NCBI GenBank assembly: GCA_051294905.1
Contig: CM119371.1
Coordinates: forward strand, 35,528,001 to 35,592,000
Length of the DNA: 64,000 nt
Direction: 5' to 3'
Source of the DNA: Botryllus schlosseri
Lineage: Eukaryota
Of the stretch, positions 8,008 through 64,000 are shown in pieces; the stretch's first letter is position 1, and each line of letters starts with the position of its first letter. The translations under genes were made by a program, and so were the position numbers. Under the pieces are notes generated by a model that did not search any database, was not told the DNA's origin, and saw only the letters and a list, made by a program, of their open reading frames with translations.

Positions 8008-8045
8008 GGCATTCCCGTCTGACCGTCGTCGAGTACGGAGGTCTC
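8008..8045 (+). promoter_or_regulatory. Putative internal Pol II promoter of element A (Inr-like CATT plus downstream element)
   Basis: CATT at 8010-8013. CGTCGTCGAGTACGGA at 8024-8039 matches family B 62417-62432 at 14/16 nt, at nearly the same distance from the 5' end. I and jockey group LINEs are known to use internal Inr/DPE promoters. Confidence 0.6.
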
Positions 8046-8204
8046 TCGTGAAAGAATAATTATCGCTAGTCTTCGTTTGCCTCATTAGGTATCGATACTC
8101 CGCGAGGTTAGGTCTTTACGTAGTGTATATGCAGACGTGTCTCTTGGGATCTTTGTCAGGTAGTTAGTAGAGTGTATACCCTCACCGCCTTGAAAGGGTA
8201 GGTG

Positions 8205-9698
8205 ATGGAGGGTATAACCTCTAATCTCAAACGTAGAATGGAAGATCCAGATAGCGACGAGGGAGCTGTTGGATCTTGCGGGAATACCAAGATTCCTGCG
8301 AGGAAATTCGCGATCGTAGATAATCCCAACGCTACGACGACTTCTCAGCCATCGTCTAGCCAAAACTTAGATAGCTCTTCACCGAGCATTATCCCCAGTG
8401 CATCATTGGCCACTCCGGTGTCAAGTGGGGGATCCGCATTCGTGACGGATCCCGTCAATAGTATGACCGTTATAATTTCGGGCAGAGATAGGGTGATGAC
8501 ACGATATCACCCTGTGAAAGTTAACAGAGCTCTATACGCTATCATCGACAGCTATGCTGGTATCAAGCCACTCCCTTCGGGAGATCTTCTACTTACGTGT
8601 CATAACCACAAGCAAGTGACTAAAATGTTAGAATGCGTTTCATTAAGTGACACGACCACAAATACTAAAATTGCTATCTCAGTTACACCTCACACCGCAC
8701 AGAAGCCATACGCCAGTCGCGCAGTCATCAAAGGGGTACCCTTAGAAATACCGGAGAGTGAGTTGTTAGAAGACCTGGCTGCCAGTAGTGTGTCACACCT
8801 CAAACGCCTGAAACGGAGGGCAGAGAAAGGGTTTGAGCCAAGCCTGTCCGTCTTGCTATACTTTAGTTCAACAGAAGTACCCAACTACGTCACGTTCGGT
8901 TACCTTCGCTTCCGCACGAACACTTACAACCCACCACCAACTCGCTGCTTCAGATGTAACAAATTCGGACATACCTCTAAATCTTGCCGCGGAAAACCGA
9001 GCTGCACAAAATGTGGCGCCATGGACCATGCATACAATGACTGCCAAAATAACAGAAAATGCATCAATTGCAATGAAAATCATAGTGCCGCTTATGGTGG
9101 GTGCCCCGTCTATAAAGAAGAGGCAAAAATCCAAATCGTCAAAGAGAGGGAAAACCTCTCCTTCCCCGAGGCGAGGCATCAAGTACGTACACAGGATCTC
9201 GTATCGGACTCTTCGACAACGCCGCAGGATTCCATTTCTGCTTCGTCAACAATGCCAAAAGAGTCCTACGCACATAAAGTCACCGCCAAGAACAAATCTT
9301 TGAGAGTCAGAAATCCCCTAAACAGAAATATACCAACCGCGCCATCACCCAATGAAGGGGACTTTAGAGAACTACAGAGAAATCAATCAGAACAATCTGC
9401 GTTACGTAAACCCACCGCAACACAGACTGATAATACTGCAGGCAACACGACAGTTCACCCGAATCAATTAGAACCGATGCAACTGCTGGTGATGGTAGCA
9501 GAAATCGTCCAGGTTACGATTACAGCTTGCCAAACTGGCAACGGAAACATATTTAACATCGTCGCAGAAGCGTTTGGAAAGTACTTTGGACAGCATATCG
9601 ACTCGACCTTGTTGCAGAAAATGTCGAAAAACGCAAACAATCAGAATTCGGAGGCACGAAAGGAAGCCACGGTCCCACAAAATCGCAATGGACAATAA
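8205..9698 (+). CDS. ORF1p, Gag-like nucleic-acid-binding protein with three CCHC zinc knuckles (497 aa)
   Basis: Knuckles CFRCNKFGHTSKSC, CTKCGAMDHAYNDC and CINCNENHSAAYGGC, preceded by an RRM-like VIKGVP region. First ATG is 8205 (the track start at 8202 is a GTG). Stop TAA at 9696-9698. Confidence 0.95.
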   Translation: MEGITSNLKRRMEDPDSDEGAVGSCGNTKIPARKFAIVDNPNATTTSQPSSSQNLDSSSPSIIPSASLATPVSSGGSAFVTDPVNSMTVIISGRDRVMTRYHPVKVNRALYAIIDSYAGIKPLPSGDLLLTCHNHKQVTKMLECVSLSDTTTNTKIAISVTPHTAQKPYASRAVIKGVPLEIPESELLEDLAASSVSHLKRLKRRAEKGFEPSLSVLLYFSSTEVPNYVTFGYLRFRTNTYNPPPTRCFRCNKFGHTSKSCRGKPSCTKCGAMDHAYNDCQNNRKCINCNENHSAAYGGCPVYKEEAKIQIVKERENLSFPEARHQVRTQDLVSDSSTTPQDSISASSTMPKESYAHKVTAKNKSLRVRNPLNRNIPTAPSPNEGDFRELQRNQSEQSALRKPTATQTDNTAGNTTVHPNQLEPMQLLVMVAEIVQVTITACQTGNGNIFNIVAEAFGKYFGQHIDSTLLQKMSKNANNQNSEARKEATVPQNRNGQ

Positions 9699-12600
9699 AA
9701 CGCTAACCATATTACAATGGAATTGCCGTAGTATATATAAAAAATTGCCGGAGTTCAAGCATTTTCTTTCGACCCTAGATCACAAACCAGATGTTATTCT
9801 TTTGCAAGAGACTCACCTAATCGACAAATATACTCCGAAATTACGGGGCTATCGGCTTTTCCGACGCGACAAGACGGTTCACAAGGGTGGTCTGGCAGCT
9901 TTCGTTGCAGAATCTCTGAGTTGTAGCGAGGACGTTTCCGTGGCGTCGAATTGCTTCGAGTTGATGTGCCTGAGACTTGCCGACATAACTATATGCAACG
10001 TCTATATACCTCCCGATTACACTTTGAGCCAAGACGACCTCTCTTTCCTGTCATCTTTAGAGTCGCGGTCACTCATTTGTGGTGACTTTAATGCTCACCA
10101 TTGGGCATGGAGCCATCGCTCAAACCAACGGGGTAACCGACTTTATGATTATATTGACAGGCATAACTTCGTTTTGCTCAACAATTCGCAACCTACGAGA
10201 ATCAACCTGTCCGCAGATGCCATACATCGCTCATCCCTGATTGATTTAACCCTTGCGTCACCAGACATTGCGGCTTGTTGTCACACCAGCGTTTCAGGTC
10301 ACCTCATTGGCAGCGATCACTTTTTAGTGTCCACGACATTTCACTGCAATGTGGCACGTTCGCAAAAAATACCAAGATGGTGTTTGAAAAAAGCCAACTG
10401 GCTGGATTTCTCGCAGAACGTGGACCGTGCCCTCAGCAGCCCAATGCCGGAAAATGTACAGCAACTCAATACTGCTCTCACAAATATCATAGTCAATTCC
10501 GCCAAAATCACAATTCCCCGGACGCGAAACACCAACAAGATCCCTGTGCCTTGGTGGAATAAGGACTGTGAAAGGGCCGTTCGACGCAAGAAAGCTGCAT
10601 TCTTGAAAATGAAAAGATCTTTCAATTACCGTGACGTGATCTGCTTTAGGCGACTGCGGTCGGAATGCCGCAAAACCATTCTGACTGCAAAGAGGTCGTG
10701 CTGGGAAGAGTTTTGCGATTCTATTAACCGAAAAACGGACTTCCGCAAGGTGTGGAAAATTGTGGCATCGATGTCCAGGGCCTCCGCACCTCGCTCAATA
10801 CCAATACTCAATGTCAACAACACTACATTGAAGACCGATCGACGCAAAACCGAAGCCCTCTCGGTGGCCTTCTGTAAAGTCAGTAGTAACGCGAATTACC
10901 CAGTGACCTTCATGCAATATAGAAATGAAATCGAAAGAATTCAAATGCCCACCGCAAATTCAAATCGTATTGGAGGTGAATTGAACATACCCTTCAGTAT
11001 GTCAGAGTTGGAATGCGCAATACGCTCCCGGAAAGACACGTCTCCAGGGGGCGATTCAATCTGTTATGCAATGTTGAAACACCTTTCCGGCAACTCGCTG
11101 CAGCATCTACTACGCCTCTTCAATGAATCCTGGGTCAGCGGAGAAATTCCCTCCGACTGGAAGCATTCTATTGTAATCCCGATTTTCAAGCAAGGCAAAG
11201 ATGGCACCGATCCCAAGTCATATCGACCAATTTCTCTTACGAGTCATCTCTGCAAAGTGATGGAGGTTATGGTCGCAAACAGAATACGCTGGCACTTGGA
11301 GGCCCACAATTTGCTACATCCCTCTCAGTCAGGCTTCCGAAAGGGGAGGTGTACTCTAGACCACGCCATACGACTCCATGACTCGATATACAAGGCTATC
11401 AATAACCAACGGTCAACGATAGCCGTATTTCTCGATATAGAACGCGCTTACGACATGGTTTGGCGAAAAGGTTTACTATTGAAGCTATCTCGGCTTGGTA
11501 TTGGTGAGAAAGCACTCTGCTGGATCCAGAATTTCCTTACAAATCGAACCTACCAAGTGCGTGTCGGAAATACGCTGTCCGATGTAAACAGCCTCGATAA
11601 CGGAATCCCCCAAGGAAGCGTTTTGAGTCCGTTGCTTTTCACCGTGATGTTGAACGATGTGCCCCTAGATGTTCGAAGCAGCGTTGGCATTTACGCGGAT
11701 GACTGTGCCATATGGGAGAGCGGTCTTGGTATACCCACGATCGTTTCATCAATTCAGAGGTCTCTTGACTCGGTGCAGGAATGGTGTAGTAAATGGGGAT
11801 TCGTTCTCTCAAAAACGAAGTCTGTAGCAATGCTCTTCACTAGGAAAAGAAAGATTCCCGATGTGCACTTGCACATTGACGGAAATCGCATCAACCTCGT
11901 TGACAACTTCAAGTATCTTGGTATTACTTTTGATAAGTTGTTGACGTACAAAACACATATTGACAACGTCGCGAAAAAATGCTCCAGACGAATGGGATTA
12001 CTTCGTGTCGTCACACACACCGCATGGGGTGCTAATAAACACGCACTTCTACAGTTATACAGATCTCTTATCAGATCCGTCATCGACTATGGTATGCCAG
12101 CATACTTTTTCACATCGAAATATAACACTCACAAATTAGGGCTAATACAGAACCAAGCTTTACGCTTGTGTTGCGGAGCAATGCGGAGTACACCCATATG
12201 TGCTTTGCAAGCCGCCTGTAACGAACCTCCTCTCCACATTCGACACAAATATTTGTGTATGAATTATCGGTGCCACTTGCTTGGTCAGGAATACAACCAA
12301 CACCCATCAACTGAACTACTAACTGATTCATGGCATGAAATTTACTCCTTGATAAGACCGAACTTCAAGACGTTCAATACCCTGTCAAAATCCCCTATTC
12401 TGGAACGGTTAATGGTGGAAAAAGAACGAATTCAGTTCGTGGCACCCTGGACAGTTCCACTTCCCACGGTCGACAGATCATTAACTCGGCTTATACGAAA
12501 GGGGGACTCGCCAATCTCAGTGAACTCGTGTTTCAGAGATTACCTTTTCGAGTGCCACGACCAAGCCGTCGAGATCTACACAGACGGTTCAAAGACGGAT

Positions 12601-13416
12601 ACAGCAACGGCTTTCGCGATTTACATACCATCACAGTCAGTCCGACTTAGCCAGATCTGCCCGAGTTTATTTTCCGTTTTTCAAGTGGAGATGCTAGCTA
12701 TCGCTAATGCTCTATCGTGGATAATCCATCATGGCAGTCGAACCGATAAATATGTTATTCTGACAGATTGTCTTAGTGTTCTGAACACAATCGCCACCCC
12801 GAACCGCACACCGAGCAGAACGTTCAATAAGATTTTTCCTCTCTTCCTGCAGATTGTAGGGATGGGGATCGACGTTGCCTTCTCCTGGGTTCCAGGACAT
12901 AGTGGCATTCCCGGCAATGAGGTTGCAGATGAACTTGCACGTTCCACCGCCTCTTTCGCATTTGACAGTCAGGGAATACCTCAAATTACCTATAGAGATG
13001 TCAAGAACGAAGTACGAAAATACGTCCGGACTGAGTGGCAGACCGAGTACCGTTCAACAGAGACGGGAAACCACTACAAACGTTTCCACCGAACGGTACG
13101 AACAACGTTTCCCTCGATGCACAGATCGCGTTTGTATGAAACGATAATATTCCGTCTCCGGTCCGGCCATTGTCGCCTAAAGGGGCATTTATTTAAAATA
13201 GGCTGCATCGACACGCCTTTGTGTGACTTATGCCACGTACCCGAGAATGTAGATCACTTCCTCCTCGCATGCTCAAAATACGATTGGCACCGAGCATATT
13301 TAATTGATTTCTGCTTGAACTTGAAAGTTGAGTTGACCACATATAACCTTCTCGTACGACCAGAACTTCTCTCGCCTCTCGTCGAGTTCGTCCTGGCAAG
13401 CAATGTTTTGATTTGA
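9688..13416 (+). CDS. ORF2p: APE endonuclease, reverse transcriptase, RNase H and C-terminal CCHC (1242 aa)
   Basis: APE motifs QWNCRS, LQET, GDFNAH, IDLT, SDH. RT motifs YRPISL, QSGFR, FLDIERAYD, PQGSVLSP, YADD, YLG. RNase H motifs YTDGS, TDC, WVPGHSGIPGNEVAD. Zinc motif CDLCHVPENVDHFLLAC. ATG at 9688 (the track start at 9574 is a TTG). Confidence 0.97.
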   Translation: MDNKTLTILQWNCRSIYKKLPEFKHFLSTLDHKPDVILLQETHLIDKYTPKLRGYRLFRRDKTVHKGGLAAFVAESLSCSEDVSVASNCFELMCLRLADITICNVYIPPDYTLSQDDLSFLSSLESRSLICGDFNAHHWAWSHRSNQRGNRLYDYIDRHNFVLLNNSQPTRINLSADAIHRSSLIDLTLASPDIAACCHTSVSGHLIGSDHFLVSTTFHCNVARSQKIPRWCLKKANWLDFSQNVDRALSSPMPENVQQLNTALTNIIVNSAKITIPRTRNTNKIPVPWWNKDCERAVRRKKAAFLKMKRSFNYRDVICFRRLRSECRKTILTAKRSCWEEFCDSINRKTDFRKVWKIVASMSRASAPRSIPILNVNNTTLKTDRRKTEALSVAFCKVSSNANYPVTFMQYRNEIERIQMPTANSNRIGGELNIPFSMSELECAIRSRKDTSPGGDSICYAMLKHLSGNSLQHLLRLFNESWVSGEIPSDWKHSIVIPIFKQGKDGTDPKSYRPISLTSHLCKVMEVMVANRIRWHLEAHNLLHPSQSGFRKGRCTLDHAIRLHDSIYKAINNQRSTIAVFLDIERAYDMVWRKGLLLKLSRLGIGEKALCWIQNFLTNRTYQVRVGNTLSDVNSLDNGIPQGSVLSPLLFTVMLNDVPLDVRSSVGIYADDCAIWESGLGIPTIVSSIQRSLDSVQEWCSKWGFVLSKTKSVAMLFTRKRKIPDVHLHIDGNRINLVDNFKYLGITFDKLLTYKTHIDNVAKKCSRRMGLLRVVTHTAWGANKHALLQLYRSLIRSVIDYGMPAYFFTSKYNTHKLGLIQNQALRLCCGAMRSTPICALQAACNEPPLHIRHKYLCMNYRCHLLGQEYNQHPSTELLTDSWHEIYSLIRPNFKTFNTLSKSPILERLMVEKERIQFVAPWTVPLPTVDRSLTRLIRKGDSPISVNSCFRDYLFECHDQAVEIYTDGSKTDTATAFAIYIPSQSVRLSQICPSLFSVFQVEMLAIANALSWIIHHGSRTDKYVILTDCLSVLNTIATPNRTPSRTFNKIFPLFLQIVGMGIDVAFSWVPGHSGIPGNEVADELARSTASFAFDSQGIPQITYRDVKNEVRKYVRTEWQTEYRSTETGNHYKRFHRTVRTTFPSMHRSRLYETIIFRLRSGHCRLKGHLFKIGCIDTPLCDLCHVPENVDHFLLACSKYDWHRAYLIDFCLNLKVELTTYNLLVRPELLSPLVEFVLASNVLI

Positions 13417-13562
13417 ACAAATTTTCGTTAAGGTACACACACGACTTGCGAAGGTACACGACTTGCAACTGGTAATACAACATTTCTGTCGTGGCGCACC
13501 AGACCGATAAGGTGACAAGCGCCACAATGTCCCATTTTCAAAATTAATAATAATAATAATAA
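13417..13562 (+). other. 3' UTR with short direct repeat, stem-loop and (TAA)6 tail
   Basis: AAGGTACAC(ACAC)GACTTGC occurs twice (13430-13449, 13451-13466). GTGGCGC (13491-13497) and GCGCCAC (13519-13525) form an inverted repeat. TAA x6 at 13545-13562. Confidence 0.85.
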
Positions 13563-16500
13563 TACACGTATAGCTCTCGGATTAAAGACGCCGATATTTC
13601 TATCTTAGACAAGTGCTCCACTTTTAATCACGTTCAGGAGTCGAGGCTTGTCCCAAAGCATAATCGAACCGAGTTTTAGCCAATTCTAATGTCTAGTTCA
13701 AGTCTAATTTCATCTCTACTTTTCAGAGAAATTGCACGAGTATCATCACCTGGCCAACGTCTTTCGCAAAATTACACGTATAGCTCTCGGATTAAAGACG
13801 CCAATATTTCTTTCTTAGACAGGTGCTCCACTTTTAACCACGTTCAGGAGTCGAGGCTTGTCCCAAAGCATACTCGAACCGAATTTCAGCCAATTCTACC
13901 GTCTAGTTCGAGTCGAATCTCATCTCTACTTTTCAGAGAAATAGCGCGAGTATCATCACCTGGCCAACGTCTTTCGCAAAATTACACGTATAGCTCTCGG
14001 ATTAAAGACGCCGATATTTCTATCTTAGCCAAGTGCTCCACTTTTAATCACGTTCACGAGTCAAGGCTTGTCCCAAAGCATAATCGAACCGAGTTTTAGC
14101 CAATTCTACCGTCTAGTTCGAGTCGAATTTCATCTCTACTTTTCAGAGAAATTGCACGAGTATCATCACCTGGCCAACGTCTTTCGCAAAATTACACGTA
14201 TAGCTTTCGGATTAAAGACGCCGATATTTCTATCTTAGACAAGTGCTCCACTTTTAATCACGTTCAGGAGTCGAGGCTTGTCCCAAAGCATAATCGAACC
14301 GAGTTTTACCCAATTCTACCGTCTAGTTCGAGTCGAATTTCATCTCTACTTTTCAGAGAAATTGCACGAGTATCATCACCTGGCCAACGTCTTTCGCAAA
14401 ATTACACGTATAGCTCTCGGATTAAAGACGCCGATATTTCTATCTTAGACAAGTGCTCTACTTTAAACCACGTTCAGGAGTCGAGGCTTGTCCCAAAGCA
14501 TAATCGAACCTAATTTAAGCCAATTCTACCGTCTAGTTCGAGTCGAATATCATCTCTACTTTTCAGAGAAATAGCGCGAGTATCATCACCTGGCTAACGT
14601 CTTTCGCAAAATTACACGTATAGCTCTCGGATTAAAGACGCCGACATTTCTATCTTAGACAAGTGCTCCACTTTTAACCACGTTCAGGATTCGAGGCTTG
14701 TCCCAAAGCATAATCGAACCGAATTTCAGCCAATTCTACCGTCTAGTTCGAGTCGAATCTCATCTCTACTTTTCAGAGAAATTGCACGAGTATCATCACC
14801 TGGCCAACGTTTTTCGCAAAATTACACGTATAGCTCTCGGATTAAAGACGCCGATATTTCTATCTTAGACAAGTGCTCCACTTTTAATCACGTTCAGGAG
14901 TCGAGGCTTGTCCCAAAGCATAATCGAACCGAGTTTTAGCCAATTCTACCGTCTAGTTCGAGTCGAATTTCATCTCTACTTTTCAGAGAAATTGCACGAG
15001 TATCATCACCTGGCCAACGTCTTTCGCAAAATTACACGTATAGCTCTCGGATTAAAGACGCCGATATTTCTATCTTAGACAAGTGCTACACTTTTAATCA
15101 CGTTCAGGAGTCGAGGCTTGTCACAAAGCATAATCGAACCGAGTTTTAGCCAATTCTACCGTCTAGTTCGAGTCTAATTTCATCTCTACTTTTCAGAGAA
15201 ATTGCACGAGTATCATCACCTGGCCAACGTCTTTCGCAAAATTACACGTATAGCTCTCGGATTAAAGACGCCGATATTTCTATCTTAGACAAGTGCTCCA
15301 TATTTAATCACGTTCAGGAGTCGAGGCTTGTCCCAAAGCATATTCGAACCGAGTTTTAGCCAATTCTACCGTCTAGTTCGAGTCTAATTTCATCTCTACT
15401 TTTCAGAGAAATTGCACGAGTATCATCACCTGGCCAACGTCTTTCGCAAAATTACACGTATAGCTCTCGGATTAAAGACGCCGATATTTCTATCTTAGAC
15501 AAGTGCTCCACTTTTAACCACGTTCAGGAGTCGAGGCTTGTCCCAAAGCATAATCGAACCGAATTTCAGCCAATTCTACCGTCTAGTTCGAGTCGAATCT
15601 CATCTCTACTTTTCAGAGAAATAGCGCGAGTATCATCACCTGGCCAACGTCTTTCGCAAAATTACACGTATAGCTCTCGGATTAAAGACGCCGATATTTC
15701 TATCTTAGCCAAGTGCTCCACTTTTAATCACGTTCATGAGTCGAGGCTTGTCCCAAAGCATAATCGAACCGAGTTTTAGCCAATTCTACCGTCTAGTTCG
15801 AGTCGAATTTCATCTCTACTTTTCAGAGAAATTGCATGAGTATCATCACATGGCCAACGTCTTTCGCAAAATTACACGTATAGCTTTCGGATTAAAGACG
15901 CCGATATTTCTATCTTAGACAAGTGCTCCACTTTTAATCACGTTCAGGAGTCGAGGCTTGTACCAAAGCATAATCGAACCGAGTTTTAGCCAATTCTACC
16001 GTCTAGTTCGAGTCGAATTTCATCTCTACTTTTCAGAGAAATTGCACGAGTATCATCACCTGGCCAACGTCTTTCGCAAAATTACACGTATAGCTCTCGG
16101 ATTAAAGACGCCGATATTTCTATCTTAGACAAGTGCTCCACTTTAAACCACGTTCAGGAGTCGAGGCTTGTCCCAAAGCATAATCGAACCTAATTTAAGC
16201 CAATTCTACCGTCTAGTTCGAGTCGAATATCATCTCTACTTTTCAGAGAAATAGCGCGAGTATCATCACCTGGCTAACGTCTTTCGCAAAATTACACGTA
16301 TAGCTCTCGGATTAAAGACGCCGACATTTCTATCTTAGACAAGTGCTCCACTTTTAACCACGTTCAGGATTCGAGGCTTGTCCCAAAGCATAATCGAACC
16401 GAATTTCAGCCAATTCTACCGTCTAGTTCGAGTCGAATCTCATCTCTACTTTTCAGAGAAATTGCACGAGTATCATCACCTGGCCAACGTTTTTCGCAAA

Positions 16501-25500: not shown

Positions 25501-25755
25501 TATCATCACCTGGCAAACGTCTTTCGCAAAATCACACGTATAGCTCTCGGATTAAAGACGCCGATATTTCTATCTTAGACAAGTGCTCCACTTTTAATCC
25601 CGTTCAGGAGTCGAGGCTTGTCACAAAGCATAATCGAACCGAGTTTTAGCCAATTCTACAGTCTAGCTCGAGTCGAATTTCATCTCTACTTTTCAGAGAA
25701 ATTGCACGAGTATCATCACCTGGCCAACGTCTGTCGCAAAATTACACGTATAGCT
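13563..25755 (+). repeat. 210-bp satellite array, segment 2 (58 monomers plus the 13-bp TSD)
   Basis: Resumes in register at TACACGTATAGCTCTCGG. Contains a 1680-bp (8-mer) duplication, marked at 15736 and 17416. Confidence 0.99.
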
Positions 25756-25952
25756 GGCATTCCCGTCTGACCGTCGTCGAGTACGGAGGTCTCTCGTGAA
25801 AGAATAATTATCGCTAGTCTTCGTTTGCCTCATTAGGTATCGATACTCCGCGAGGTTAGGTCTTTACGTAGTGTATATGCAGACGTGTCTCTTGGGATCT
25901 TTGTCAGGTAGTTAGTAGAGTGTATACCCTCACCGCCTTGAAAGGGTAGGTG

Positions 25953-27446
25953 ATGGAGGGTATAACCTCTAATCTCAAACGTAGAATGGAAGATCCAGAT
26001 AGCGACGAGGGAGCTGTTGGATCTTGCGGGAATACCAAGATTCCTGCGAGGAAATTCGCGATCGTAGATAATCCCAACGCTACGACGACTTCTCAGCCAT
26101 CGTCTAGCCAAAACTTAGATAGCTCTTCACCGAGCATTATCCCCAGTGCATCATTGGCCACTCCGGTGTCAAGTGGGGGATCCGCATTCGTGACGGATCC
26201 CGTCAATAGTATGACCGTTATAATTTCGGGCAGAGATAGGGTGATGACACGATATCACCCTGTGAAAGTTAACAGAGCTCTATACGCTATCATCGACAGC
26301 TATGCTGGTATCAAGCCACTCCCTTCGGGAGATCTTCTACTTACGTGTCATAACCACAAGCAAGTGACTAAAATGTTAGAATGCGTTTCATTAAGTGACA
26401 CGACCACAAATACTAAAATTGCTATCTCAGTTACACCTCACACCGCACAGAAGCCATACGCCAGTCGCGCAGTCATCAAAGGGGTACCCTTAGAAATACC
26501 GGAGAGTGAGTTGTTAGAAGACCTGGCTGCCAGTAGTGTGTCACACCTCAAACGCCTGAAACGGAGGGCAGAGAAAGGGTTTGAGCCAAGCCTGTCCGTC
26601 TTGCTATACTTTAGTTCAACAGAAGTACCCAACTACGTCACGTTCGGTTACCTTCGCTTCCGCACGAACACTTACAACCCACCACCAACTCGCTGCTTCA
26701 GATGTAACAAATTCGGACATACCTCTAAATCTTGCCGCGGAAAACCGAGCTGCACAAAATGTGGCGCCATGGACCATGCATACAATGACTGCCAAAATAA
26801 CAGAAAATGCATCAATTGCAATGAAAATCATAGTGCCGCTTATGGTGGGTGCCCCGTCTATAAAGAAGAGGCAAAAATCCAAATCGTCAAAGAGAGGGAA
26901 AACCTCTCCTTCCCCGAGGCGAGGCATCAAGTACGTACACAGGATCTCGTATCGGACTCTTCGACAACGCCGCAGGATTCCATTTCTGCTTCGTCAACAA
27001 TGCCAAAAGAGTCCTACGCACATAAAGTCACCGCCAAGAACAAATCTTTGAGAGTCAGAAATCCCCTAAACAGAAATATACCAACCGCGCCATCACCCAA
27101 TGAAGGGGACTTTAGAGAACTACAGAGAAATCAATCAGAACAATCTGCGTTACGTAAACCCACCGCAACACAGACTGATAATACTGCAGGCAACACGACA
27201 GTTCACCCGAATCAATTAGAACCGATGCAACTGCTGGTGATGGTAGCAGAAATCGTCCAGGTTACGATTACAGCTTGCCAAACTGGCAACGGAAACATAT
27301 TTAACATCGTCGCAGAAGCGTTTGGAAAGTACTTTGGACAGCATATCGACTCGACCTTGTTGCAGAAAATGTCGAAAAACGCAAACAATCAGAATTCGGA
27401 GGCACGAAAGGAAGCCACGGTCCCACAAAATCGCAATGGACAATAA
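25953..27446 (+). CDS. ORF1p, Gag-like, 3xCCHC (copy 2)
   Basis: Translation identical to that of 8205-9698 in the ORF track. Confidence 0.95.
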   Translation: MEGITSNLKRRMEDPDSDEGAVGSCGNTKIPARKFAIVDNPNATTTSQPSSSQNLDSSSPSIIPSASLATPVSSGGSAFVTDPVNSMTVIISGRDRVMTRYHPVKVNRALYAIIDSYAGIKPLPSGDLLLTCHNHKQVTKMLECVSLSDTTTNTKIAISVTPHTAQKPYASRAVIKGVPLEIPESELLEDLAASSVSHLKRLKRRAEKGFEPSLSVLLYFSSTEVPNYVTFGYLRFRTNTYNPPPTRCFRCNKFGHTSKSCRGKPSCTKCGAMDHAYNDCQNNRKCINCNENHSAAYGGCPVYKEEAKIQIVKERENLSFPEARHQVRTQDLVSDSSTTPQDSISASSTMPKESYAHKVTAKNKSLRVRNPLNRNIPTAPSPNEGDFRELQRNQSEQSALRKPTATQTDNTAGNTTVHPNQLEPMQLLVMVAEIVQVTITACQTGNGNIFNIVAEAFGKYFGQHIDSTLLQKMSKNANNQNSEARKEATVPQNRNGQ

Positions 27447-30400
27447 AACGCTAACCATATTACAATGGAATTGCCGTAGTATATATAAAAAATTGCCGGA
27501 GTTCAAGCATTTTCTTTCGACCCTAGATCACAAACCAGATGTTATTCTTTTGCAAGAGACTCACCTAATCGACAAATATACTCCGAAATTACGGGGCTAT
27601 CGGCTTTTCCGACGCGACAAGACGGTTCACAAGGGTGGTCTGGCAGCTTTCGTTGCAGAATCTCTGAGTTGTAGCGAGGACGTTTCCGTGGCGTCGAATT
27701 GCTTCGAGTTGATGTGCCTGAGACTTGCCGACATAACTATATGCAACGTCTATATACCTCCCGATTACACTTTGAGCCAAGACGACCTCTCTTTCCTGTC
27801 ATCTTTAGAGTCGCGGTCACTCATTTGTGGTGACTTTAATGCTCACCATTGGGCATGGAGCCATCGCTCAAACCAACGGGGTAACCGACTTTATGATTAT
27901 ATTGACAGGCATAACTTCGTTTTGCTCAACAATTCGCAACCTACGAGAATCAACCTGTCCGCAGATGCCATACATCGCTCATCCCTGATTGATTTAACCC
28001 TTGCGTCACCAGACATTGCGGCTTGTTGTCACACCAGCGTTTCAGGTCACCTCATTGGCAGCGATCACTTTTTAGTGTCCACGACATTTCACTGCAATGT
28101 GGCACGTTCGCAAAAAATACCAAGATGGTGTTTGAAAAAAGCCAACTGGCTGGATTTCTCGCAGAACGTGGACCGTGCCCTCAGCAGCCCAATGCCGGAA
28201 AATGTACAGCAACTCAATACTGCTCTCACAAATATCATAGTCAATTCCGCCAAAATCACAATTCCCCGGACGCGAAACACCAACAAGATCCCTGTGCCTT
28301 GGTGGAATAAGGACTGTGAAAGGGCCGTTCGACGCAAGAAAGCTGCATTCTTGAAAATGAAAAGATCTTTCAATTACCGTGACGTGATCTGCTTTAGGCG
28401 ACTGCGGTCGGAATGCCGCAAAACCATTCTGACTGCAAAGAGGTCGTGCTGGGAAGAGTTTTGCGATTCTATTAACCGAAAAACGGACTTCCGCAAGGTG
28501 TGGAAAATTGTGGCATCGATGTCCAGGGCCTCCGCACCTCGCTCAATACCAATACTCAATGTCAACAACACTACATTGAAGACCGATCGACGCAAAACCG
28601 AAGCCCTCTCGGTGGCCTTCTGTAAAGTCAGTAGTAACGCGAATTACCCAGTGACCTTCATGCAATATAGAAATGAAATCGAAAGAATTCAAATGCCCAC
28701 CGCAAATTCAAATCGTATTGGAGGTGAATTGAACATACCCTTCAGTATGTCAGAGTTGGAATGCGCAATACGCTCCCGGAAAGACACGTCTCCAGGGGGC
28801 GATTCAATCTGTTATGCAATGTTGAAACACCTTTCCGGCAACTCGCTGCAGCATCTACTACGCCTCTTCAATGAATCCTGGGTCAGCGGAGAAATTCCCT
28901 CCGACTGGAAGCATTCTATTGTAATCCCGATTTTCAAGCAAGGCAAAGATGGCACCGATCCCAAGTCATATCGACCAATTTCTCTTACGAGTCATCTCTG
29001 CAAAGTGATGGAGGTTATGGTCGCAAACAGAATACGCTGGCACTTGGAGGCCCACAATTTGCTACATCCCTCTCAGTCAGGCTTCCGAAAGGGGAGGTGT
29101 ACTCTAGACCACGCCATACGACTCCATGACTCGATATACAAGGCTATCAATAACCAACGGTCAACGATAGCCGTATTTCTCGATATAGAACGCGCTTACG
29201 ACATGGTTTGGCGAAAAGGTTTACTATTGAAGCTATCTCGGCTTGGTATTGGTGAGAAAGCACTCTGCTGGATCCAGAATTTCCTTACAAATCGAACCTA
29301 CCAAGTGCGTGTCGGAAATACGCTGTCCGATGTAAACAGCCTCGATAACGGAATCCCCCAAGGAAGCGTTTTGAGTCCGTTGCTTTTCACCGTGATGTTG
29401 AACGATGTGCCCCTAGATGTTCGAAGCAGCGTTGGCATTTACGCGGATGACTGTGCCATATGGGAGAGCGGTCTTGGTATACCCACGATCGTTTCATCAA
29501 TTCAGAGGTCTCTTGACTCGGTGCAGGAATGGTGTAGTAAATGGGGATTCGTTCTCTCAAAAACGAAGTCTGTAGCAATGCTCTTCACTAGGAAAAGAAA
29601 GATTCCCGATGTGCACTTGCACATTGACGGAAATCGCATCAACCTCGTTGACAACTTCAAGTATCTTGGTATTACTTTTGATAAGTTGTTGACGTACAAA
29701 ACACATATTGACAACGTCGCGAAAAAATGCTCCAGACGAATGGGATTACTTCGTGTCGTCACACACACCGCATGGGGTGCTAATAAACACGCACTTCTAC
29801 AGTTATACAGATCTCTTATCAGATCCGTCATCGACTATGGTATGCCAGCATACTTTTTCACATCGAAATATAACACTCACAAATTAGGGCTCATACAGAA
29901 CCAAGCTTTACGCTTGTGTTGCGGAGCAATGCGGAGTACACCCATATGTGCTTTGCAAGCCGCCTGTAACGAACCTCCTCTCCACATTCGACACAAATAT
30001 TTGTGTATGAATTATCGGTGCCACTTGCTTGGTCAGGAATACAACCAACACCCATCAACTGAACTACTAACTGATTCATGGCATGAAATTTACTCCTTGA
30101 TAAGACCGAACTTCAAGACGTTCAATACCCTGTCAAAATCCCCTATTCTGGAACGGTTAATGGTGGAAAAAGAACGAATTCAGTTCGTGGCACCCTGGAC
30201 AGTTCCACTTCCCACGGTCGACAGATCATTAACTCGGCTTATACGAAAGGGGGACTCGCCAATCTCAGTGAACTCGTGTTTCAGAGATTACCTTTTCGAG
30301 TGCCACGACCAAGCCGTCGAGATCTACACAGACGGTTCAAAGACGGATACAGCAACGGCTTTCGCGATTTACATACCATCACAGTCAGTCCGACTTAGCC

Positions 30401-31164
30401 AGATCTGCCCGAGTTTATTTTCCGTTTTTCAAGTGGAGATGCTAGCTATCGCTAATGCTCTATCGTGGATAATCCATCATGGCAGTCGAACCGATAAATA
30501 TGTTATTCTGACAGATTGTCTTAGTGTTCTGAACACAATCGCCACCCCGAACCGCACACCGAGCAGAACGTTCAATAAGATTTTTCCTCTCTTCCTGCAG
30601 ATTGTAGGGATGGGGATCGACGTTGCCTTCTCCTGGGTTCCAGGACATAGTGGCATTCCCGGCAATGAGGTTGCAGATGAACTTGCACGTTCCACCGCCT
30701 CTTTCGCATTTGACAGTCAGGGAATACCTCAAATTACCTATAGAGATGTCAAGAACGAAGTACGAAAATACGTCCGGACTGAGTGGCAGACCGAGTACCG
30801 TTCAACAGAGACGGGAAACCACTACAAACGTTTCCACCGAACGGTACGAACAACGTTTCCCTCGATGCACAGATCGCGTTTGTATGAAACGATAATATTC
30901 CGTCTCCGGTCCGGCCATTGTCGCCTAAAGGGGCATTTATTTAAAATAGGCTGCATCGACACGCCTTTGTGTGACTTATGCCACGTACCCGAGAATGTAG
31001 ATCACTTCCTCCTCGCATGCTCAAAATACGATTGGCACCGAGCATATTTAATTGATTTCTGCTTGAACTTGAAAGTTGACTTCACCACATATAACCTTCT
31101 CGTACGACCAGAACTTCTCTCGCCTCTCGTCGAGTTCGTCCTGGCAAGCAATGTTTTGATTTGA
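27436..31164 (+). CDS. ORF2p APE-RT-RNaseH-CCHC (copy 2)
   Basis: Same as copy 1 except KVELTT becomes KVDFTT near the C-terminus. Confidence 0.97.
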   Translation: MDNKTLTILQWNCRSIYKKLPEFKHFLSTLDHKPDVILLQETHLIDKYTPKLRGYRLFRRDKTVHKGGLAAFVAESLSCSEDVSVASNCFELMCLRLADITICNVYIPPDYTLSQDDLSFLSSLESRSLICGDFNAHHWAWSHRSNQRGNRLYDYIDRHNFVLLNNSQPTRINLSADAIHRSSLIDLTLASPDIAACCHTSVSGHLIGSDHFLVSTTFHCNVARSQKIPRWCLKKANWLDFSQNVDRALSSPMPENVQQLNTALTNIIVNSAKITIPRTRNTNKIPVPWWNKDCERAVRRKKAAFLKMKRSFNYRDVICFRRLRSECRKTILTAKRSCWEEFCDSINRKTDFRKVWKIVASMSRASAPRSIPILNVNNTTLKTDRRKTEALSVAFCKVSSNANYPVTFMQYRNEIERIQMPTANSNRIGGELNIPFSMSELECAIRSRKDTSPGGDSICYAMLKHLSGNSLQHLLRLFNESWVSGEIPSDWKHSIVIPIFKQGKDGTDPKSYRPISLTSHLCKVMEVMVANRIRWHLEAHNLLHPSQSGFRKGRCTLDHAIRLHDSIYKAINNQRSTIAVFLDIERAYDMVWRKGLLLKLSRLGIGEKALCWIQNFLTNRTYQVRVGNTLSDVNSLDNGIPQGSVLSPLLFTVMLNDVPLDVRSSVGIYADDCAIWESGLGIPTIVSSIQRSLDSVQEWCSKWGFVLSKTKSVAMLFTRKRKIPDVHLHIDGNRINLVDNFKYLGITFDKLLTYKTHIDNVAKKCSRRMGLLRVVTHTAWGANKHALLQLYRSLIRSVIDYGMPAYFFTSKYNTHKLGLIQNQALRLCCGAMRSTPICALQAACNEPPLHIRHKYLCMNYRCHLLGQEYNQHPSTELLTDSWHEIYSLIRPNFKTFNTLSKSPILERLMVEKERIQFVAPWTVPLPTVDRSLTRLIRKGDSPISVNSCFRDYLFECHDQAVEIYTDGSKTDTATAFAIYIPSQSVRLSQICPSLFSVFQVEMLAIANALSWIIHHGSRTDKYVILTDCLSVLNTIATPNRTPSRTFNKIFPLFLQIVGMGIDVAFSWVPGHSGIPGNEVADELARSTASFAFDSQGIPQITYRDVKNEVRKYVRTEWQTEYRSTETGNHYKRFHRTVRTTFPSMHRSRLYETIIFRLRSGHCRLKGHLFKIGCIDTPLCDLCHVPENVDHFLLACSKYDWHRAYLIDFCLNLKVDFTTYNLLVRPELLSPLVEFVLASNVLI

Positions 31165-31310
31165 ACAAATTTTCGTTAAGGTACACACACGACTTGCGAA
31201 GGTACACGACTTGCAACTGGTAATACAACATTTCTGTCGTGGCGCACCAGACCGATAAGGTGACAAGCGCCACAATGTCCCATTTTCAAAATTAATAATA
31301 ATAATAATAA

Positions 31311-34300
31311 TACACGTATAGCTCTCGGATTAAAGACGCCGATATTTCTATCTTAGACAAGTGCTCCACTTTTAATCACGTTCAGGAGTCGAGGCTTGTC
31401 CCAAAGCATAATCGAACCGAGTTTTAGCCAATTCTAATGTCTAGTTCAAGTCTAATTTCATCTCTACTTTTCAGAGAAATTGCACGAGTATCATCACCTG
31501 GCCAACGTCTTTCGCAAAATTACACGTATAGCTCTCGGATTAAAGACGCCAATATTTCTTTCTTAGACAGGTGCTCCACTTTTAACCACGTTCAGGAGTC
31601 GAGGCTTGTCCCAAAGCATACTCGAACCGAATTTCAGCCAATTCTACCGTCTAGTTCGAGTCGAATCTCATCTCTACTTTTCAGAGAAATAGCGCGAGTA
31701 TCATCACCTGGCCAACGTCTTTCGCAAAATTACACGTATAGCTCTCGGATTAAAGACGCCGATATTTCTATCTTAGCCAAGTGCTCCACTTTTAATCACG
31801 TTCACGAGTCAAGGCTTGTCCCAAAGCATAATCGAACCGAGTTTTAGCCAATTCTACCGTCTAGTTCGAGTCGAATTTCATCTCTACTTTTCAGAGAAAT
31901 TGCACGAGTATCATCACCTGGCCAACGTCTTTCGCAAAATTACACGTATAGCTTTCGGATTAAAGACGCCGATATTTCTATCTTAGACAAGTGCTCCACT
32001 TTTAATCACGTTCAGGAGTCGAGGCTTGTCCCAAAGCATAATCGAACCGAGTTTTACCCAATTCTACCGTCTAGTTCGAGTCGAATTTCATCTCTACTTT
32101 TCAGAGAAATTGCACGAGTATCATCACCTGGCCAACGTCTTTCGCAAAATTACACGTATAGCTCTCGGATTAAAGACGCCGATATTTCTATCTTAGACAA
32201 GTGCTCTACTTTAAACCACGTTCAGGAGTCGAGGCTTGTCCCAAAGCATAATCGAACCTAATTTAAGCCAATTCTACCGTCTAGTTCGAGTCGAATATCA
32301 TCTCTACTTTTCAGAGAAATAGCGCGAGTATCATCACCTGGCTAACGTCTTTCGCAAAATTACACGTATAGCTCTCGGATTAAAGACGCCGACATTTCTA
32401 TCTTAGACAAGTGCTCCACTTTTAACCACGTTCAGGATTCGAGGCTTGTCCCAAAGCATAATCGAACCGAATTTCAGCCAATTCTACCGTCTAGTTCGAG
32501 TCGAATCTCATCTCTACTTTTCAGAGAAATTGCACGAGTATCATCACCTGGCCAACGTTTTTCGCAAAATTACACGTATAGCTCTCGGATTAAAGACGCC
32601 GATATTTCTATCTTAGACAAGTGCTCCACTTTTAATCACGTTCAGGAGTCGAGGCTTGTCCCAAAGCATAATCGAACCGAGTTTTAGCCAATTCTACCGT
32701 CTAGTTCGAGTCGAATTTCATCTCTACTTTTCAGAGAAATTGCACGAGTATCATCACCTGGCCAAAGTCTTTCGCAAAATTACACGTATAGCTCTCGGAT
32801 TAAAGACGCCGATATTTCTATCTTAGACAAGTGCTACACTTTTAATCACGTTCAGGAGTCGAGGCTTGTCACAAAGCATAATCGAACCGAGTTTTAGCCA
32901 ATTCTACCGTCTAGTTCGAGTCTAATTTCATCTCTACTTTTCAGAGAAATTGCACGAGTATCATCACCTGGCCAACGTCTTTCGCAAAATTACACGTATA
33001 GCTCTCGGATTAAAGACGCCGATATTTCTATCTTAGACAAGTGCTCTACTTTAAACCACGTTCAGGAGTCGAGGCTTGTCCCAAAGCATAATCGAACCTA
33101 ATTTAAGCCAATTCTACCGTCTAGTTCGAGTCGAATATCATCTCTACTTTTCAGAGAAATAGCGCGAGTATCATCACCTGGCTAACGTCTTTCGCAAAAT
33201 TACACGTATAGCTCTCGGATTAAAGACGCCGACATTTCTATCTTAGACAAGTGCTCCACTTTTAACCACGTTCAGGATTCGAGGCTTGTCCCAAAGCATA
33301 ATCGAACCGAATTTCAGCCAATTCTACCGTCTAGTTCGAGTCGAATCTCATCTCTACTTTTCAGAGAAATTGCACGAGTATCATCACCTGGCCAACGTTT
33401 TTCGCAAAATTACACGTATAGCTCTCGGATTAAAGACGCCGATATTTCTATCTTAGACAAGTGCTCCACTTTTAATCACGTTCAGGAGTCGAGGCTTGTC
33501 CCAAAGCATAATCGAACCGAGTTTTAGCCAATTCTACCGTCTAGTTCGAGTCGAATTTCATCTCTACTTTTCAGAGAAATTGCACGAGTATCATCACCTG
33601 GCCAACGTCTTTCGCAAAATTACACGTATAGCTCTCGGATTAAAGACGCCGATATTTCTATCTTAGACAAGTGCTACACTTTTAATCACGTTCAGGAGTC
33701 GAGGCTTGTCACAAAGCATAATCGAACCGAGTTTTAGCCAATTCTACCGTCTAGTTCGAGTCTAATTTCATCTCTACTTTTCAGAGAAATTGCACGAGTA
33801 TCATCACCTGGCCAACGTCTTTCGCAAAATTACACGTATAGCTCTCGGATTAAAGACGCCGATATTTCTATCTTAGACAAGTGCTCCATATTTAATCACG
33901 TTCAGGAGTCGAGGCTTGTCCCAAAGCATATTCGAACCGAGTTTTAGCCAATTCTACCGTCTAGTTCGAGTCTAATTTCATCTCTACTTTTCAGAGAAAT
34001 TGCACGAGTATCATCACCTGGCCAACGTCTTTCGCAAAATTACACGTATAGCTCTCGGATTAAAGACGCCGATATTTCTATCTTAGACAAGTGCTCCACT
34101 TTTAATCACGTTCATGAGTCGAGGCTTGTCCCAAAGCATAATCGAACCGAGTTTTAGCCAATTCTACCGTCTAGTTCGAGTCGAATTTCATCTCTACTTT
34201 TCAGAGAAATTGCATGAGTATCATCACATGGCCAACGTCTTTCGCAAAATTACACGTATAGCTTTCGGATTAAAGACGCCGATATTTCTATCTTAGACAA

Positions 34301-61300: not shown

Positions 61301-62401
61301 CACGAGTATCATCACCTGGCCAACGTCTTTCGCAAAATTACACGTATAGCTCTCGGATTAAAGACGCCGATATTTCTATCTTAGACAAGTGCTCCACTTT
61401 TAATCACGTTCAGGAGTCGAGGCTTGTCCCAAAGCATAATCGAACCGAGTTTTAGCCAATTCTACCGTCTAGTTCGAGTCGAATTTCATCTCTACTTTTC
61501 AGAGAAATTGCACGAGTATCATCACCTGGCCAACGTGTTTCGCAAAATTACACGTATAGCTCTCGGATTAAAGACGCCGATATTTCTATCTTAGACAAGT
61601 GCTCCACTTTTAACCACGTTCAGGAGTCGAGGCTTGTCCCAAAGCATAATCGAACCGAGTTTTAGCCAATTCTACCGTCTAGTTCGAGTCGAATTTCATC
61701 TCTACTTTTCAGAGAAATTGCACGAGTATCATCACCTGGCCAACGTCTTTCGCAAAATTACACGTATAGCTCTCGGATTAAAGACGCCGATATTTCTATC
61801 TTAGACAAGTGCTCCACTTTTAATCACGTTCAGGAGTCGAGGCTTGTCCGAAAGCATAATCGAACCGAATTTCAGCCAATTCTACCGTCTAGTTCGAGTC
61901 GAATCTCATCTCCTCTTTTCAGAGAAATTGCACGAGTATCATCACCTGGCCAACGTGTTTCGCAAAATTACACGTATAGCTCTCGGATTAAAGACGCCGA
62001 TATTTCTATCTTAGACAAGTGCTCCACTTTTAACCACGTTCAGGAGTCGAGGCTTGTCCCAAAGCATAATCGAACCGAGTTTTAGCCAATTCTACCGTCT
62101 AGTTCGAGTCGAATTTCATCTCTACTTTTCAGAGAAATTGCACGAGTATCATCACCTGGCCAACGTCTTTCGCAAAATTACACGTATAGCTCTCGGATTA
62201 AAGACGCCGATATTTCTATCTTAGACAAGTGCTCCACTTTTAATCACGTTCAGGAGTCGAGGCTTGTCCGAAAGCATAATCGAACCGAATTTCAGCCAAT
62301 TCTACCGTCTAGTTCGAGTCGAATCTCATCTCCTCTTTTCAGAGAAATTGCACGAGTATCATCACCTGGCCAACGTCTTTCGCAAAATTACACGTATAGC
62401 T
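31311..62401 (+). repeat. 210-bp satellite array, segment 3 (about 148 monomers) with 2-, 4-, 6- and 16-mer higher-order duplications
   Basis: Continuous 210-bp period with 1-bp deletions near 48232 and 51591. Diagnostic variants recur at 420, 840, 1260, 3359/3360 and 4620 bp spacing. Confidence 0.99.
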
Positions 62402-62514
62402 ATTTTCGGCTTGAGACGTCGTCGCGTGCGGACCTCTTGCTGCGCTTCCTAACTGAGTAGTCTGAGATAGACAAGCGCTCTATAATAATTAGTGATCTAC
62501 AACGCCAGTATCGG

Positions 62515-63882
62515 ATGGAAGTCTCTTCCTCTGGCAAACGCAAACTGTCGTGTGTTTCTACGGACGTGGTCAATAGTGATAGTGATAGCGATGCTCGTGC
62601 TTCTTTAGCGAAAGTCTCCGCTAAGGATTATGCTAGTCAGCCTACGAAGCAACCTCCTAGCACCCAGGAACCGGAATTGAGCGAGCGACCTCAGGATGGA
62701 GCAGGTCAACAACATAGTAGCCAAATGAGAGTCGTGGTATCAGGTGAAGGCCTTTCGTTGAAGCGCCTCCATCCTACAGTAGTGCATAGGGCACTCTATT
62801 CATTGATCGGCGAATATGAGGGACCTCGTCCTCTTCGGTCAGGAGACCTTCTAATCACATGCACTAGTCCGAAACAGGTTCAAGCTCTCCTCCAGTCTGA
62901 CTGTTTGACAGACAAAGTTTCCGGCTCTAAAATTAACGTAAAAACCTCTCTGTACCCCGAAAAATCATTTGCTAGCAGAGCTGTCATTTCTGGCGTGCCC
63001 CTAGATATCAAGGAGTCAGAACTACTCGACAACCTTAGCGGTGTTGGAGTATCAGCCGTAAAACGCCTTAAGAGGAAAGTCGACAAAGGTTACGACTCCT
63101 GTTCCGCCGTTCTCCTCTACTTCCGCTGTGACAAGGTACCTGAGAGTGTCAATTTCTCTTACCTTCGGTTCTGGACTAGGCCTTATAATCCTCCCCCTTT
63201 GAGATGCTATCGCTGCAATAGGTACGGCCACTCCAAAGAATCGTGTAGAGGAAAAGCAACTTGTAGTAAATGTGGTAGTTCTGACCACGAACATGCCTCG
63301 TGCACGAAGGAAAAATTTTGCATCAACTGCAAAAAACCTCACAGTGCCGCATATGGCGGTTGTAGCGTATATAAAACCGAAGCTAAACTGCAAATTATCA
63401 AAGAACGTACAAAAATCAGTTATTCCGAAGCGAAGGTCGTGTTGAACTCTGCCACCGTTGCTACCTCTTTGCCTACTTCTCATATGGACAGGACTTTTAG
63501 TGAAGTCCTTGCTAACGACTCTACATATTTTCGACAACCACGACCTCGTCGCACTAAAACCAGTTCGATCCTTAGCAAACATACCATTTCCGCTCCTGCT
63601 CCCAATGACGGGGATTTGCGACATTTCAGTCAGACCAAATCGAAAGAAAATACTGTTAGCGATGCTGCTAGCCATAGGCCTACCGAATTGGAAGAGAATA
63701 CCCCTATGTCTTCGTGTCAAACATCCACCCCAGATCTTTCGCAGTTACTTTCCCTACTTGTTGGAATCGTTGAATATACGATGGAGGCTGTCAAATCAGG
63801 TCAATGCAATGCGCTTGAAATCGTTTCCAGAGCATGCCTTAAGCATGGTTTTTCGGCTCCTGCTCCTAAAGTAAATGTCTAA
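62515..63882 (+). CDS. ORF1p of family B, Gag-like, 3xCCHC (455 aa)
   Basis: Knuckles CYRCNRYGHSKESC, CSKCGSSDHEHASC and CINCKKPHSAAYGGC. Shares SGDLL, ASRAVIxGVPL, ESELL, KRLKR, YNPPP and HSAAYGGCxVYK with family A. Confidence 0.95.
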   Translation: MEVSSSGKRKLSCVSTDVVNSDSDSDARASLAKVSAKDYASQPTKQPPSTQEPELSERPQDGAGQQHSSQMRVVVSGEGLSLKRLHPTVVHRALYSLIGEYEGPRPLRSGDLLITCTSPKQVQALLQSDCLTDKVSGSKINVKTSLYPEKSFASRAVISGVPLDIKESELLDNLSGVGVSAVKRLKRKVDKGYDSCSAVLLYFRCDKVPESVNFSYLRFWTRPYNPPPLRCYRCNRYGHSKESCRGKATCSKCGSSDHEHASCTKEKFCINCKKPHSAAYGGCSVYKTEAKLQIIKERTKISYSEAKVVLNSATVATSLPTSHMDRTFSEVLANDSTYFRQPRPRRTKTSSILSKHTISAPAPNDGDLRHFSQTKSKENTVSDAASHRPTELEENTPMSSCQTSTPDLSQLLSLLVGIVEYTMEAVKSGQCNALEIVSRACLKHGFSAPAPKVNV

Positions 63883-64000
63883 TCAAGCTCTTCGTTTCAT
63901 CCAATGGAATTGTAGAGGTATTTATCGTAAACTACCCGAGCTTAAACAATATATCAATAACCTACCAAATACCCCTGATGTGATATTGCTTCAAGAGACT
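63875..64000 (+). CDS. ORF2p of family B, N-terminal 42 aa of the APE endonuclease (partial; absent from the ORF track)
   Basis: Hand translation gives MSNQALRFIQWNCRGIYRKLPELKQYINNLPNTPDVILLQET, against family A MDNKTLTILQWNCRSIYKKLPEFKHFLSTLDHKPDVILLQET. Confidence 0.93.
   Translation, partial: MSNQALRFIQWNCRGIYRKLPELKQYINNLPNTPDVILLQET

Follow-up and report, generated by a model that had tools for sequence, protein, structure and literature searches.

A probable insertion hot spot for weakly specific I-like LINEs in a 210-bp satellite of Botryllus schlosseri

L1 insertions at preferred sites in human alpha-satellite monomers were reportedly described by Laurent et al. in 1997 (Genomics 46:127), and this behaviour, in which a dispersed and weakly specific long interspersed nuclear element (LINE) inserts recurrently at the same site of a monomer offering few good endonuclease sites, is the closest analogue of the case presented here. 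According to PMC4640811, most target-specific LINE families fall in the early-branching, Tx1 and R1 groups, Keno and Utopia have converged on the same U2 position, and RNase H is listed for clades of the I group. We studied a 64,000-nt stretch of the Botryllus schlosseri genome (G000:C1:35528001-35592000, from a 495.5-Mb assembly in 219 contigs), hereafter the window, in which an array of a 210-bp satellite is entered by two I-like LINE families, A and B, and compared these with two further families, C and D, that have integrated into the same satellite elsewhere. The original prediction for this stretch held that two diverged families had entered the satellite at the same nucleotide and in the same orientation, and that they belong to a lineage with a conserved specificity for this site, which uses the array as a safe harbour. 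The first statement is borne out by the junctions at 8007, 25755 and 62401, while the second has to be given up, as the copies lie mostly outside the satellite (26 of 27 independent 3' ends of A and all 20 further 3' ends of B). The reading we favour, with a probability of roughly 0.75, is that of a weakly specific I-like LINE lineage that has a strong local hot spot in the satellite and is not dedicated to it.

The Drosophila I factor has a (TAA)n tail and an ORF1 (open reading frame 1) with CCHC knuckles. A comparable organization is seen in the Botryllus elements, which resemble the I group (I/Nimb-like) in an ORF2 combining an apurinic/apyrimidinic-type endonuclease (APE), a reverse transcriptase (RT) and RNase H, in three CCHC-type knuckles in ORF1, in target site duplications (TSDs) of 10-14 bp, in the (TAA)n tail of A, C and D, in their dispersed copies and in a weak A/T-rich target preference; they differ from it in the (CAA)n tail of B and the (TAAA)n or (ATAC)n tails of close relatives of C. 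With the R1 clade (R1, TRAS, SART) and the Tx1 clade (Keno, Mutsu and others) they share identical junctions in a tandem target; however, essentially all copies of R1- or Tx1-type elements sit in their target, whereas for each of A-D the share is less than about 5%. Compared to L1 in alphoid DNA, the present case concerns a different LINE group, with four diverged families and agreement to 0-2 nt at both junctions. A search of open-access full text returned no paper in which several I-group families are reported to meet at one nucleotide of a satellite.

The site shared by A and B, which we term S, reads in full AAAATT^ACACGTATAGCT^CTCGG, and both families enter after ...ACACGTATAGCT. The satellite ends in ...CGCAAAATTACACGTATAGCT at 8007, 25755 and 62401, before A (twice) and B in the same orientation, whereas the uninterrupted repeat unit reads on into CTCGGATTAAAG; the sequence right after the first two junctions starts GGCATTCCCGTC, and that after the third ATTTTCGGCTTGAG. 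Other genomic copies place the canonical 5' ends at (CA)TTCCCGTCTGACC for A and (CA)TTCGGCTTGAG for B, and hence the GG of A and the ATT of B are extra junction nucleotides that leave the target junction unmoved. The TSD of A is 13 bp long, its (TAA)n tail being followed by a second copy of TACACGTATAGCT (Table 1). Family B is 5.43 kb long with ORF1 and ORF2 intact and ends 3.8 kb past the window, where (CAA)n is followed by ACGTATAGCTCTCGG, giving a TSD of 10-12 bp depending on the AC shared with the tail; the matching duplication, which had been proposed as a check on the shared site, is therefore present at the same place beyond the window. A third family, C, came up on C15 while variants of the site were being probed. 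This full-length element (about 5.3 kb) has a (TAA)n tail adjoining CACGTATAGCTCTCGG, a 5' junction that reads ...ACACGTATAGCTCT followed by TTCGCTCAGAGACG, and the TSD (A)CACGTATAGCT(CT), such that A, B and C have site S in common within 2 nt at both junctions. The 3' region of C aligns with that of A over 79 nt at 80% and with that of B over 80 nt at 71%, and nothing aligns beyond. Site S of the satellite, NEVERTHELESS, is a real hot spot.

A fourth family, D, has inserted twice at another site, R, which lies about 30 bp from S and reads in full GGTGATGA^TACTCGCGCAAT^ on the strand opposite to S. The two insertions, at C1:35.037 Mb (D1) and C7:1.187 Mb (D2), have identical 3' junctions, (TAA)nTA followed by CTCGCGCAATTTC. 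D1 is a 5'-truncated element of 1.5 kb with satellite on both sides and a TSD of its own, ATACTCGCGCAAT, while D2 carries an intact ORF2 of 1270 aa. Their element parts are identical over 927 nt, whereas the flanks differ at 22 of about 670 nt (3.3%), and the likeness of the flanks in register is no greater than that out of register; by these comparisons D1 and D2 are independent events. Read in the orientation of the element, the TSDs at S and R agree at 8 of their 13 positions, and all five events fall inside about 45 bp of the 210-bp unit.

To cover the array irrespective of monomer phase, we surveyed the whole genome for a tail repeat lying 0-215 nt from a satellite landmark, in any phase and in both relative orientations, with two landmarks, four tail types and one tail-independent motif of the 3' untranslated region (UTR), over roughly 3000 monomers. 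With (TAA)n the forward survey found only A (three times) and C, with (CAA)n only B, and the reverse survey with either tail found the two places occupied by D. A second landmark with shorter tails returned the same places again, plus several matches in non-satellite sequence, and the tail-independent 3' UTR motif, ANGCGCCA, returned the same seven places. Poly(A) tails gave 0 matches near the satellite landmark in both orientations, and (TAAA)n and (TACA)n tails likewise gave 0 matches there. The tally is thus five independent I-like insertions, with A, B and C at S and D twice at R. Because a third family occurs at S on another chromosome, and because a phase-unbiased survey places three of five events at S and the other two at R, the hits at S exceed chance, and the supposition that the coincidence of A and B was non-random stands. 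The one point that speaks for pure chance is that the finding was chosen after the fact from a large scan; but on a uniform model of 420 positions and strands two more events within 2 nt of the first have a probability of about (5/420)^2, or 1.4e-4, the exact coincidence of D1 and D2 adds a factor of about 1/420, and C, D1 and D2 were all found afterwards in phase-blind searches, which makes an accident scarcely credible.

A different way of removing the coincidence would be to deny that the events are independent, by supposing one ancestral insertion that was inherited, or gene conversion between monomers or arrays. This does hold for A. The two copies in the window have identical flanks and are offset by 17,748 bp, and a third copy, 100% identical, lies another 17,748 bp upstream, outside the window, its unit starting at G000:C1:35518260; hence the three copies represent a single event, multiplied by host recombination and not by repeated integration, and the two in the window count as one, as had been proposed. 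Preprint 10.64898/2026.09.17.752431, a centromere atlas, gives the same pattern for LINEs in satellite arrays, where several identical copies sharing their TSD within an array are taken for one integration multiplied by host recombination, and the A triplicate at its 17,748-bp spacing matches it. This pattern, however, covers the triplicate only and leaves the convergence of A, B and C unexplained. The latter differ in 5' UTR, ORFs (40-48% amino acid identity between A and B), 3' UTR and tail type, and these sequence differences refute a common origin of the three insertions; the independence of A and B, claimed earlier, is upheld by the same figures (ORF1 40%, ORF2 48%). Moreover, over 596 nt B matches dispersed copies at 99-100% identity and is therefore a recent arrival, and D1 and D2 have different 5' ends and flanks 3.3% apart around identical element parts, D1 having its own TSD. 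Taken over all five events, non-independence is very improbable.

The three A copies lie in a higher-order unit of 17,748 bp, consisting of the 5.56-kb LINE and 58 monomers, which is repeated head to tail at least three times and occupies 8008-25755 and 25756-43503 in the window. The first 593 nt of A are 100% identical across all three unit copies, and the LINE therefore now belongs to the repeat structure of the satellite.

We then assessed how far the four families depend on the satellite. The 5' ends of B could be located in 22 of the 25 loci matching its first 599 nt, and 21 of them follow unrelated, mutually different, non-satellite flanks, the window copy alone following satellite; thirteen of the 21 dispersed ends are B proper (85-100% identity) and eight belong to a relative (66-68%). 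For A, 5' ends located in 16 of 19 loci represent 15 distinct places, three of the triplicate and 12 in unrelated DNA, so that 12 of 13 independent 5' ends are outside the satellite. Its 3' ends (n=30) comprise the three of the triplicate and 27 in unrelated DNA, among which L068 and L073 are one duplicated event, leaving 26 of 27 independent 3' ends in non-satellite DNA. None of 20 3' ends of B (the best 20 of 41 matches, window copy aside) is in satellite, or 20 of 21 are outside it when the window copy is included. All fetched 3' flanks besides the satellite copies are non-satellite in C-type elements (8/8) and in D (7/7), which with the satellite copies counted gives 8/9 for C and 7/9 for D, and by coordinate one of 44 matches of C and two of 40 matches of D fall in known arrays. 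Overall, the satellite holds under about 5% of the copies examined in each family. A, B, C and D are all mostly dispersed, and the satellite is not their dedicated target. Site-specific LINEs have nearly all copies in their target, which by end and coordinate counts holds for none of A, B, C and D; independent copies with the same junction, another mark of such LINEs, do occur here, within the satellite only. Collecting the copies and mapping their junctions, as had been suggested, gave a divided answer: the insertions in the satellite share S or R, while most copies lie outside it.

The assignment to the I group draws on the proteins. ORF2 of A (1242 aa) matches, in Pfam, Exo_endo_phos_2 (E 5e-20, residues 100-214), RVT_1 (E 1.2e-38, residues 506-748) and, downstream of the RT, RNase_H (E 6.5e-13, residues 959-1088), which agrees with the I-type architecture with RNase H that had been predicted. 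The ORF2s of B and D align with it end to end, with identities among A, B and D of 48-58% (A to B 48%, D to A 58%, D to B 48%). The ORF1s of A and B are 40% identical over 377 aa, and their alignment retains three C-X2-C-X3/4-H-X4/6-C motifs, although ORF1 has no Pfam match at E 0.001 or better. A PDB sequence search gave L1 ORF2p and L1-EN as nearest solved relatives, which carries no clade information. These elements may accordingly be regarded as I-group in architecture and behaviour, their clade being perhaps I, Nimb or another of that group.

For the ordinary mode of integration, we turned to dispersed copies. All 15 full-length dispersed copies (11 of B and 4 of A) have a TSD of 10-14 bp when their 5' and 3' flanks are paired, and among 5'-truncated A copies a repeat of at least 9 nt is found at the truncation point in 10 of 21; eight of these ten were kept, L064 being dropped as its repeat does not adjoin the tail and L073 as a duplicate of L068. 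A target matrix was built from 23 dispersed sites only, aligned at the start of the TSD, and all 420 monomer positions and strands were scored with it. The 23 sites have T at -1 in 13 cases, A at +1 in 17 and C at +2 in 8, and are A/T-rich from -5 to -2, which amounts to a weak preference of dispersed insertions for nicking at T^A(C). Scored from -4 to +2, the AATT^AC of site S ranks first among the 420, and from -5 to +3 second. Several results from the same analysis weigh against the reading of a weakly specific lineage as a sufficient account. With a wider matrix (-8 to +6) AATT^AC drops to rank 19, the model assigns S only 2-4% of the within-monomer probability, the simulated chance of three of four insertions coinciding within 2 nt is 0.3-0.6%, and site R ranks only about 50th; hence the weak preference accounts for the pattern partly, in that it names S without explaining the concentration. 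On the same side of the balance, the five satellite events among 646 first-look 3'-end candidates compare with about 0.8 expected from the 0.12% share of the satellite, an excess of about six times, so that the satellite may really be favoured to some degree, or copies may survive better there.

What the weak-preference model leaves unexplained also speaks for a cryptic sequence specificity. On this alternative the endonuclease or ORF2 protein would recognize, where the TSD begins, the motif T(A)^C[A/T]CG, found in the monomer only at S and R, alongside promiscuous insertion; S and R would be the arms of an inverted repeat and the lineage an intermediate towards R1- or Tx1-type targeting. All five satellite events do lie at a tail-adjoining TA followed by CACG or CTCG, the TSDs of S and R have the likeness given above, and one dispersed A flank, that of L063, reads T^ACACGCA. 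When the sharper motif T^AC[A/T]CG, common to S and R and present in the monomer only there, was sought at dispersed flanks, however, L063 was the single case in A (1/27), with 0/7 in D (as TACTCG) and 0/20 in B (as ACACG beside the tail). Nor is CG in excess next to dispersed tails, with 10 of 405 dinucleotides in the first 10 nt as against 83 of 2025 further out. Genome-wide, the sequence after TAATAATAATA shows no excess either, CACG following in 7 and CTCG in 4 of the 95 listed non-satellite TAATAATAATACNNG places, about the expectation from base composition, where about two thirds of the TAATAATAATA matches may be ordinary microsatellites (a reversed-pattern control gave 90 as against 135); the 10 fetched CACG or CTCG places resemble S or R over no more than 4 nt. 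We consider this alternative rather unlikely. Its variant, a latent sequence-specific mode using the dyad arms T^AC[A/T]CGT... and kept across families with 48-58% identical ORF2s, beside promiscuous insertion, is also unlikely. As to RNA-guided homing, comparison of the monomer with the elements gave chance matches of 10-11 nt only and no homology.

The alternative that remains to be weighed places the cause in chromatin or DNA structure, a phased nucleosome or a bound factor leaving the 31-bp spacer between S and R and its edges open to whatever enzyme nicks DNA. A length of 210 bp corresponds to about one nucleosome plus linker, all five events lie in about 45 bp, and the nicks face each other across the spacer with the TSDs pointing outward. 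Yet the agreement of three families to 0-2 nt argues for a sequence-level determinant too, and the array offers no other kind of retroelement for comparison, given the absence of poly(A) tails near the landmark in either orientation. Chromatin or DNA structure by itself thus seems quite improbable, although the geometry of the five events fits either a short accessible segment in phased chromatin or a sharper selectivity of the endonuclease.

Returning to the weakly specific lineage with a local hot spot, A-D would be four young families of one I-like non-LTR (non-long terminal repeat) retrotransposon lineage, each with an ORF1 bearing three CCHC knuckles, an ORF2 encoding APE, RT and RNase H, and a tail of short repeats, (TAA)n or (CAA)n. 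Ordinary target-primed reverse transcription would insert them at nearly any place in the genome, producing TSDs of 10-14 bp, through a weak choice of T^A(C) steps after an A/T-rich stretch that is probably aided where the nicked end and the RNA tail share 1-3 nt of microhomology. Inside the 210-bp monomer this choice would narrow to very few positions, namely S for A, B and C, and R for D twice. Such narrowing may come from an endonuclease preference sharper than the 23-site matrix shows or, alternatively, from only the roughly 45-bp segment with S and R being accessible in satellite chromatin.

The features of the window are collected in Table 1. The satellite extends over positions 1-62401, interrupted only by the two A copies; a 10-nt landmark recurs in the window at 210 bp in 214 of 233 intervals and at 5568 bp in two, the latter being the locations of the identical 5.56-kb elements. 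An 18-mer of the satellite, TACACGTATAGCTCTCGG, has 2310 exact matches in the genome, from which we estimate roughly 3000 monomers making up about 0.12% of the assembly; arrays of this satellite, for which the original prediction considered a possible centromeric role, were seen only on C1, C2, C4, C7 and C15.

Table 1. Features of the window (positions in the 64,000-nt stretch)
Feature	Position	Strand	Remark
210-bp satellite array	1..8007, continuing 13565-25755 and 31313-62401	+	period 210
Family A I-like LINE, copy 1	8008..13564	+	two extra G at 5' junction
A copy 1 ORFs	ORF1 8205-9698 (497 aa); ORF2 9688-13416 (1242 aa; APE, RT, RNase H)	+	
A copy 1 (TAA)n tail	13546-13564	+	
Family A, copy 2	25756..31312	+	ORFs 25953-27446, 27436-31164; same insertion event
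A 5' TSD copy, TACACGTATAGCT (site S)	7995..8007	+	
A 3' TSD copy	13563..13575	+	first two bases indistinguishable from tail
Site R, unoccupied example (AATTGCACGAGTA on + strand)	62346..62358	-	window sequence
Family B I-like LINE, 5' part	62402..64000	+	element continues to window-equivalent 67828
B ORFs	ORF1 62515-63882 (455 aa); ORF2 from 63875 (1247 aa), intact	+	
B 5' TSD copy, (AC)ACGTATAGCT (site S)	62390..62401	+	

Some further observations concern the satellite. Every monomer has an imperfect inverted repeat (62346-62401 in the window) whose arms, R (AATTGCACGAGTA) and S (TACACGTATAGCT), are set apart by a spacer of 31 bp, with the first-strand nicks at S and R facing each other over the spacer and the TSDs lying outward. 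Monomer subvariants (TTTTTATTATTG; AAAATCACACG; AGCTT or AGCTG after the landmark) return at multiples of 210 bp, as at window position 7780 and others, and the variant places G000:C1:35057706 and 35065056 are 7350 bp, or 35 monomers, apart; this spacing suggests further higher-order periodicities in the array. These last two places had appeared as reverse-tail matches in the survey and are a point variant of the monomer, TTTTTATTATTG, not insertions. Other candidates with point-variant junctions also proved on reading to be monomer variants, with the exception of C on C15. The ANGCGCCA search additionally matched the same sequence at G000:C7:1155745-1155967 and 1160114-1160336, 4369 bp apart and within about 200 nt upstream of the landmark; the printed part resembles neither satellite nor a LINE 3' end, and this pair may mark the edge of an array or an insertion of some other type.

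Other observations bear on the element ends. In most full-length copies the TSD is separated from the canonical start, (CA)TTC..., by 1-4 nt (GG, ATT, GGTA, CCT, ACCA), as at 8008-8009 and 62402-62404 in the window and in L004, L009, L013, L031 and others; such extra nucleotides occur in 13 of 15 pairs, where a single A or CA may be part of the canonical start. Relatives of C on C2, C4, C5, C8, C13 and C17 (L134-L141) have 3' UTRs 93-98% identical to that of the C15 element and tails of (TAAA)n or (ATAC)n, as against (TAA)n in the latter and (CAA)n in B, and the tail repeat thus shifts fast between close subfamilies. In the 1.9 kb upstream of the D2 ORF2 there is no open frame of more than 150 aa and no satellite, and neither ORF1 nor the 5' junction of D2 was found in G000:C7:1181350-1183243; this stretch (L113, L115) holds short repeats resembling GAAGTAGAAGTA.

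As regards the meaning of these findings, the label of a first satellite-specific I-clade LINE was wrong and has been removed. Its place is taken by four diverged, scattered LINE families with five independent integrations, each at one or the other of two nucleotides of the 210-bp unit, and a LINE swept into a 17.7-kb higher-order satellite unit is now documented. The excess of site fidelity at S and R is the unexplained part of the finding. A latent sequence-specific mode, if true, would be a natural intermediate between weakly specific and site-specific LINEs, in a clade not known for specificity. The satellite itself provides a natural experiment on the hidden target selectivity of an APE endonuclease held to be unspecific, and on whether satellite chromatin narrows its choice.

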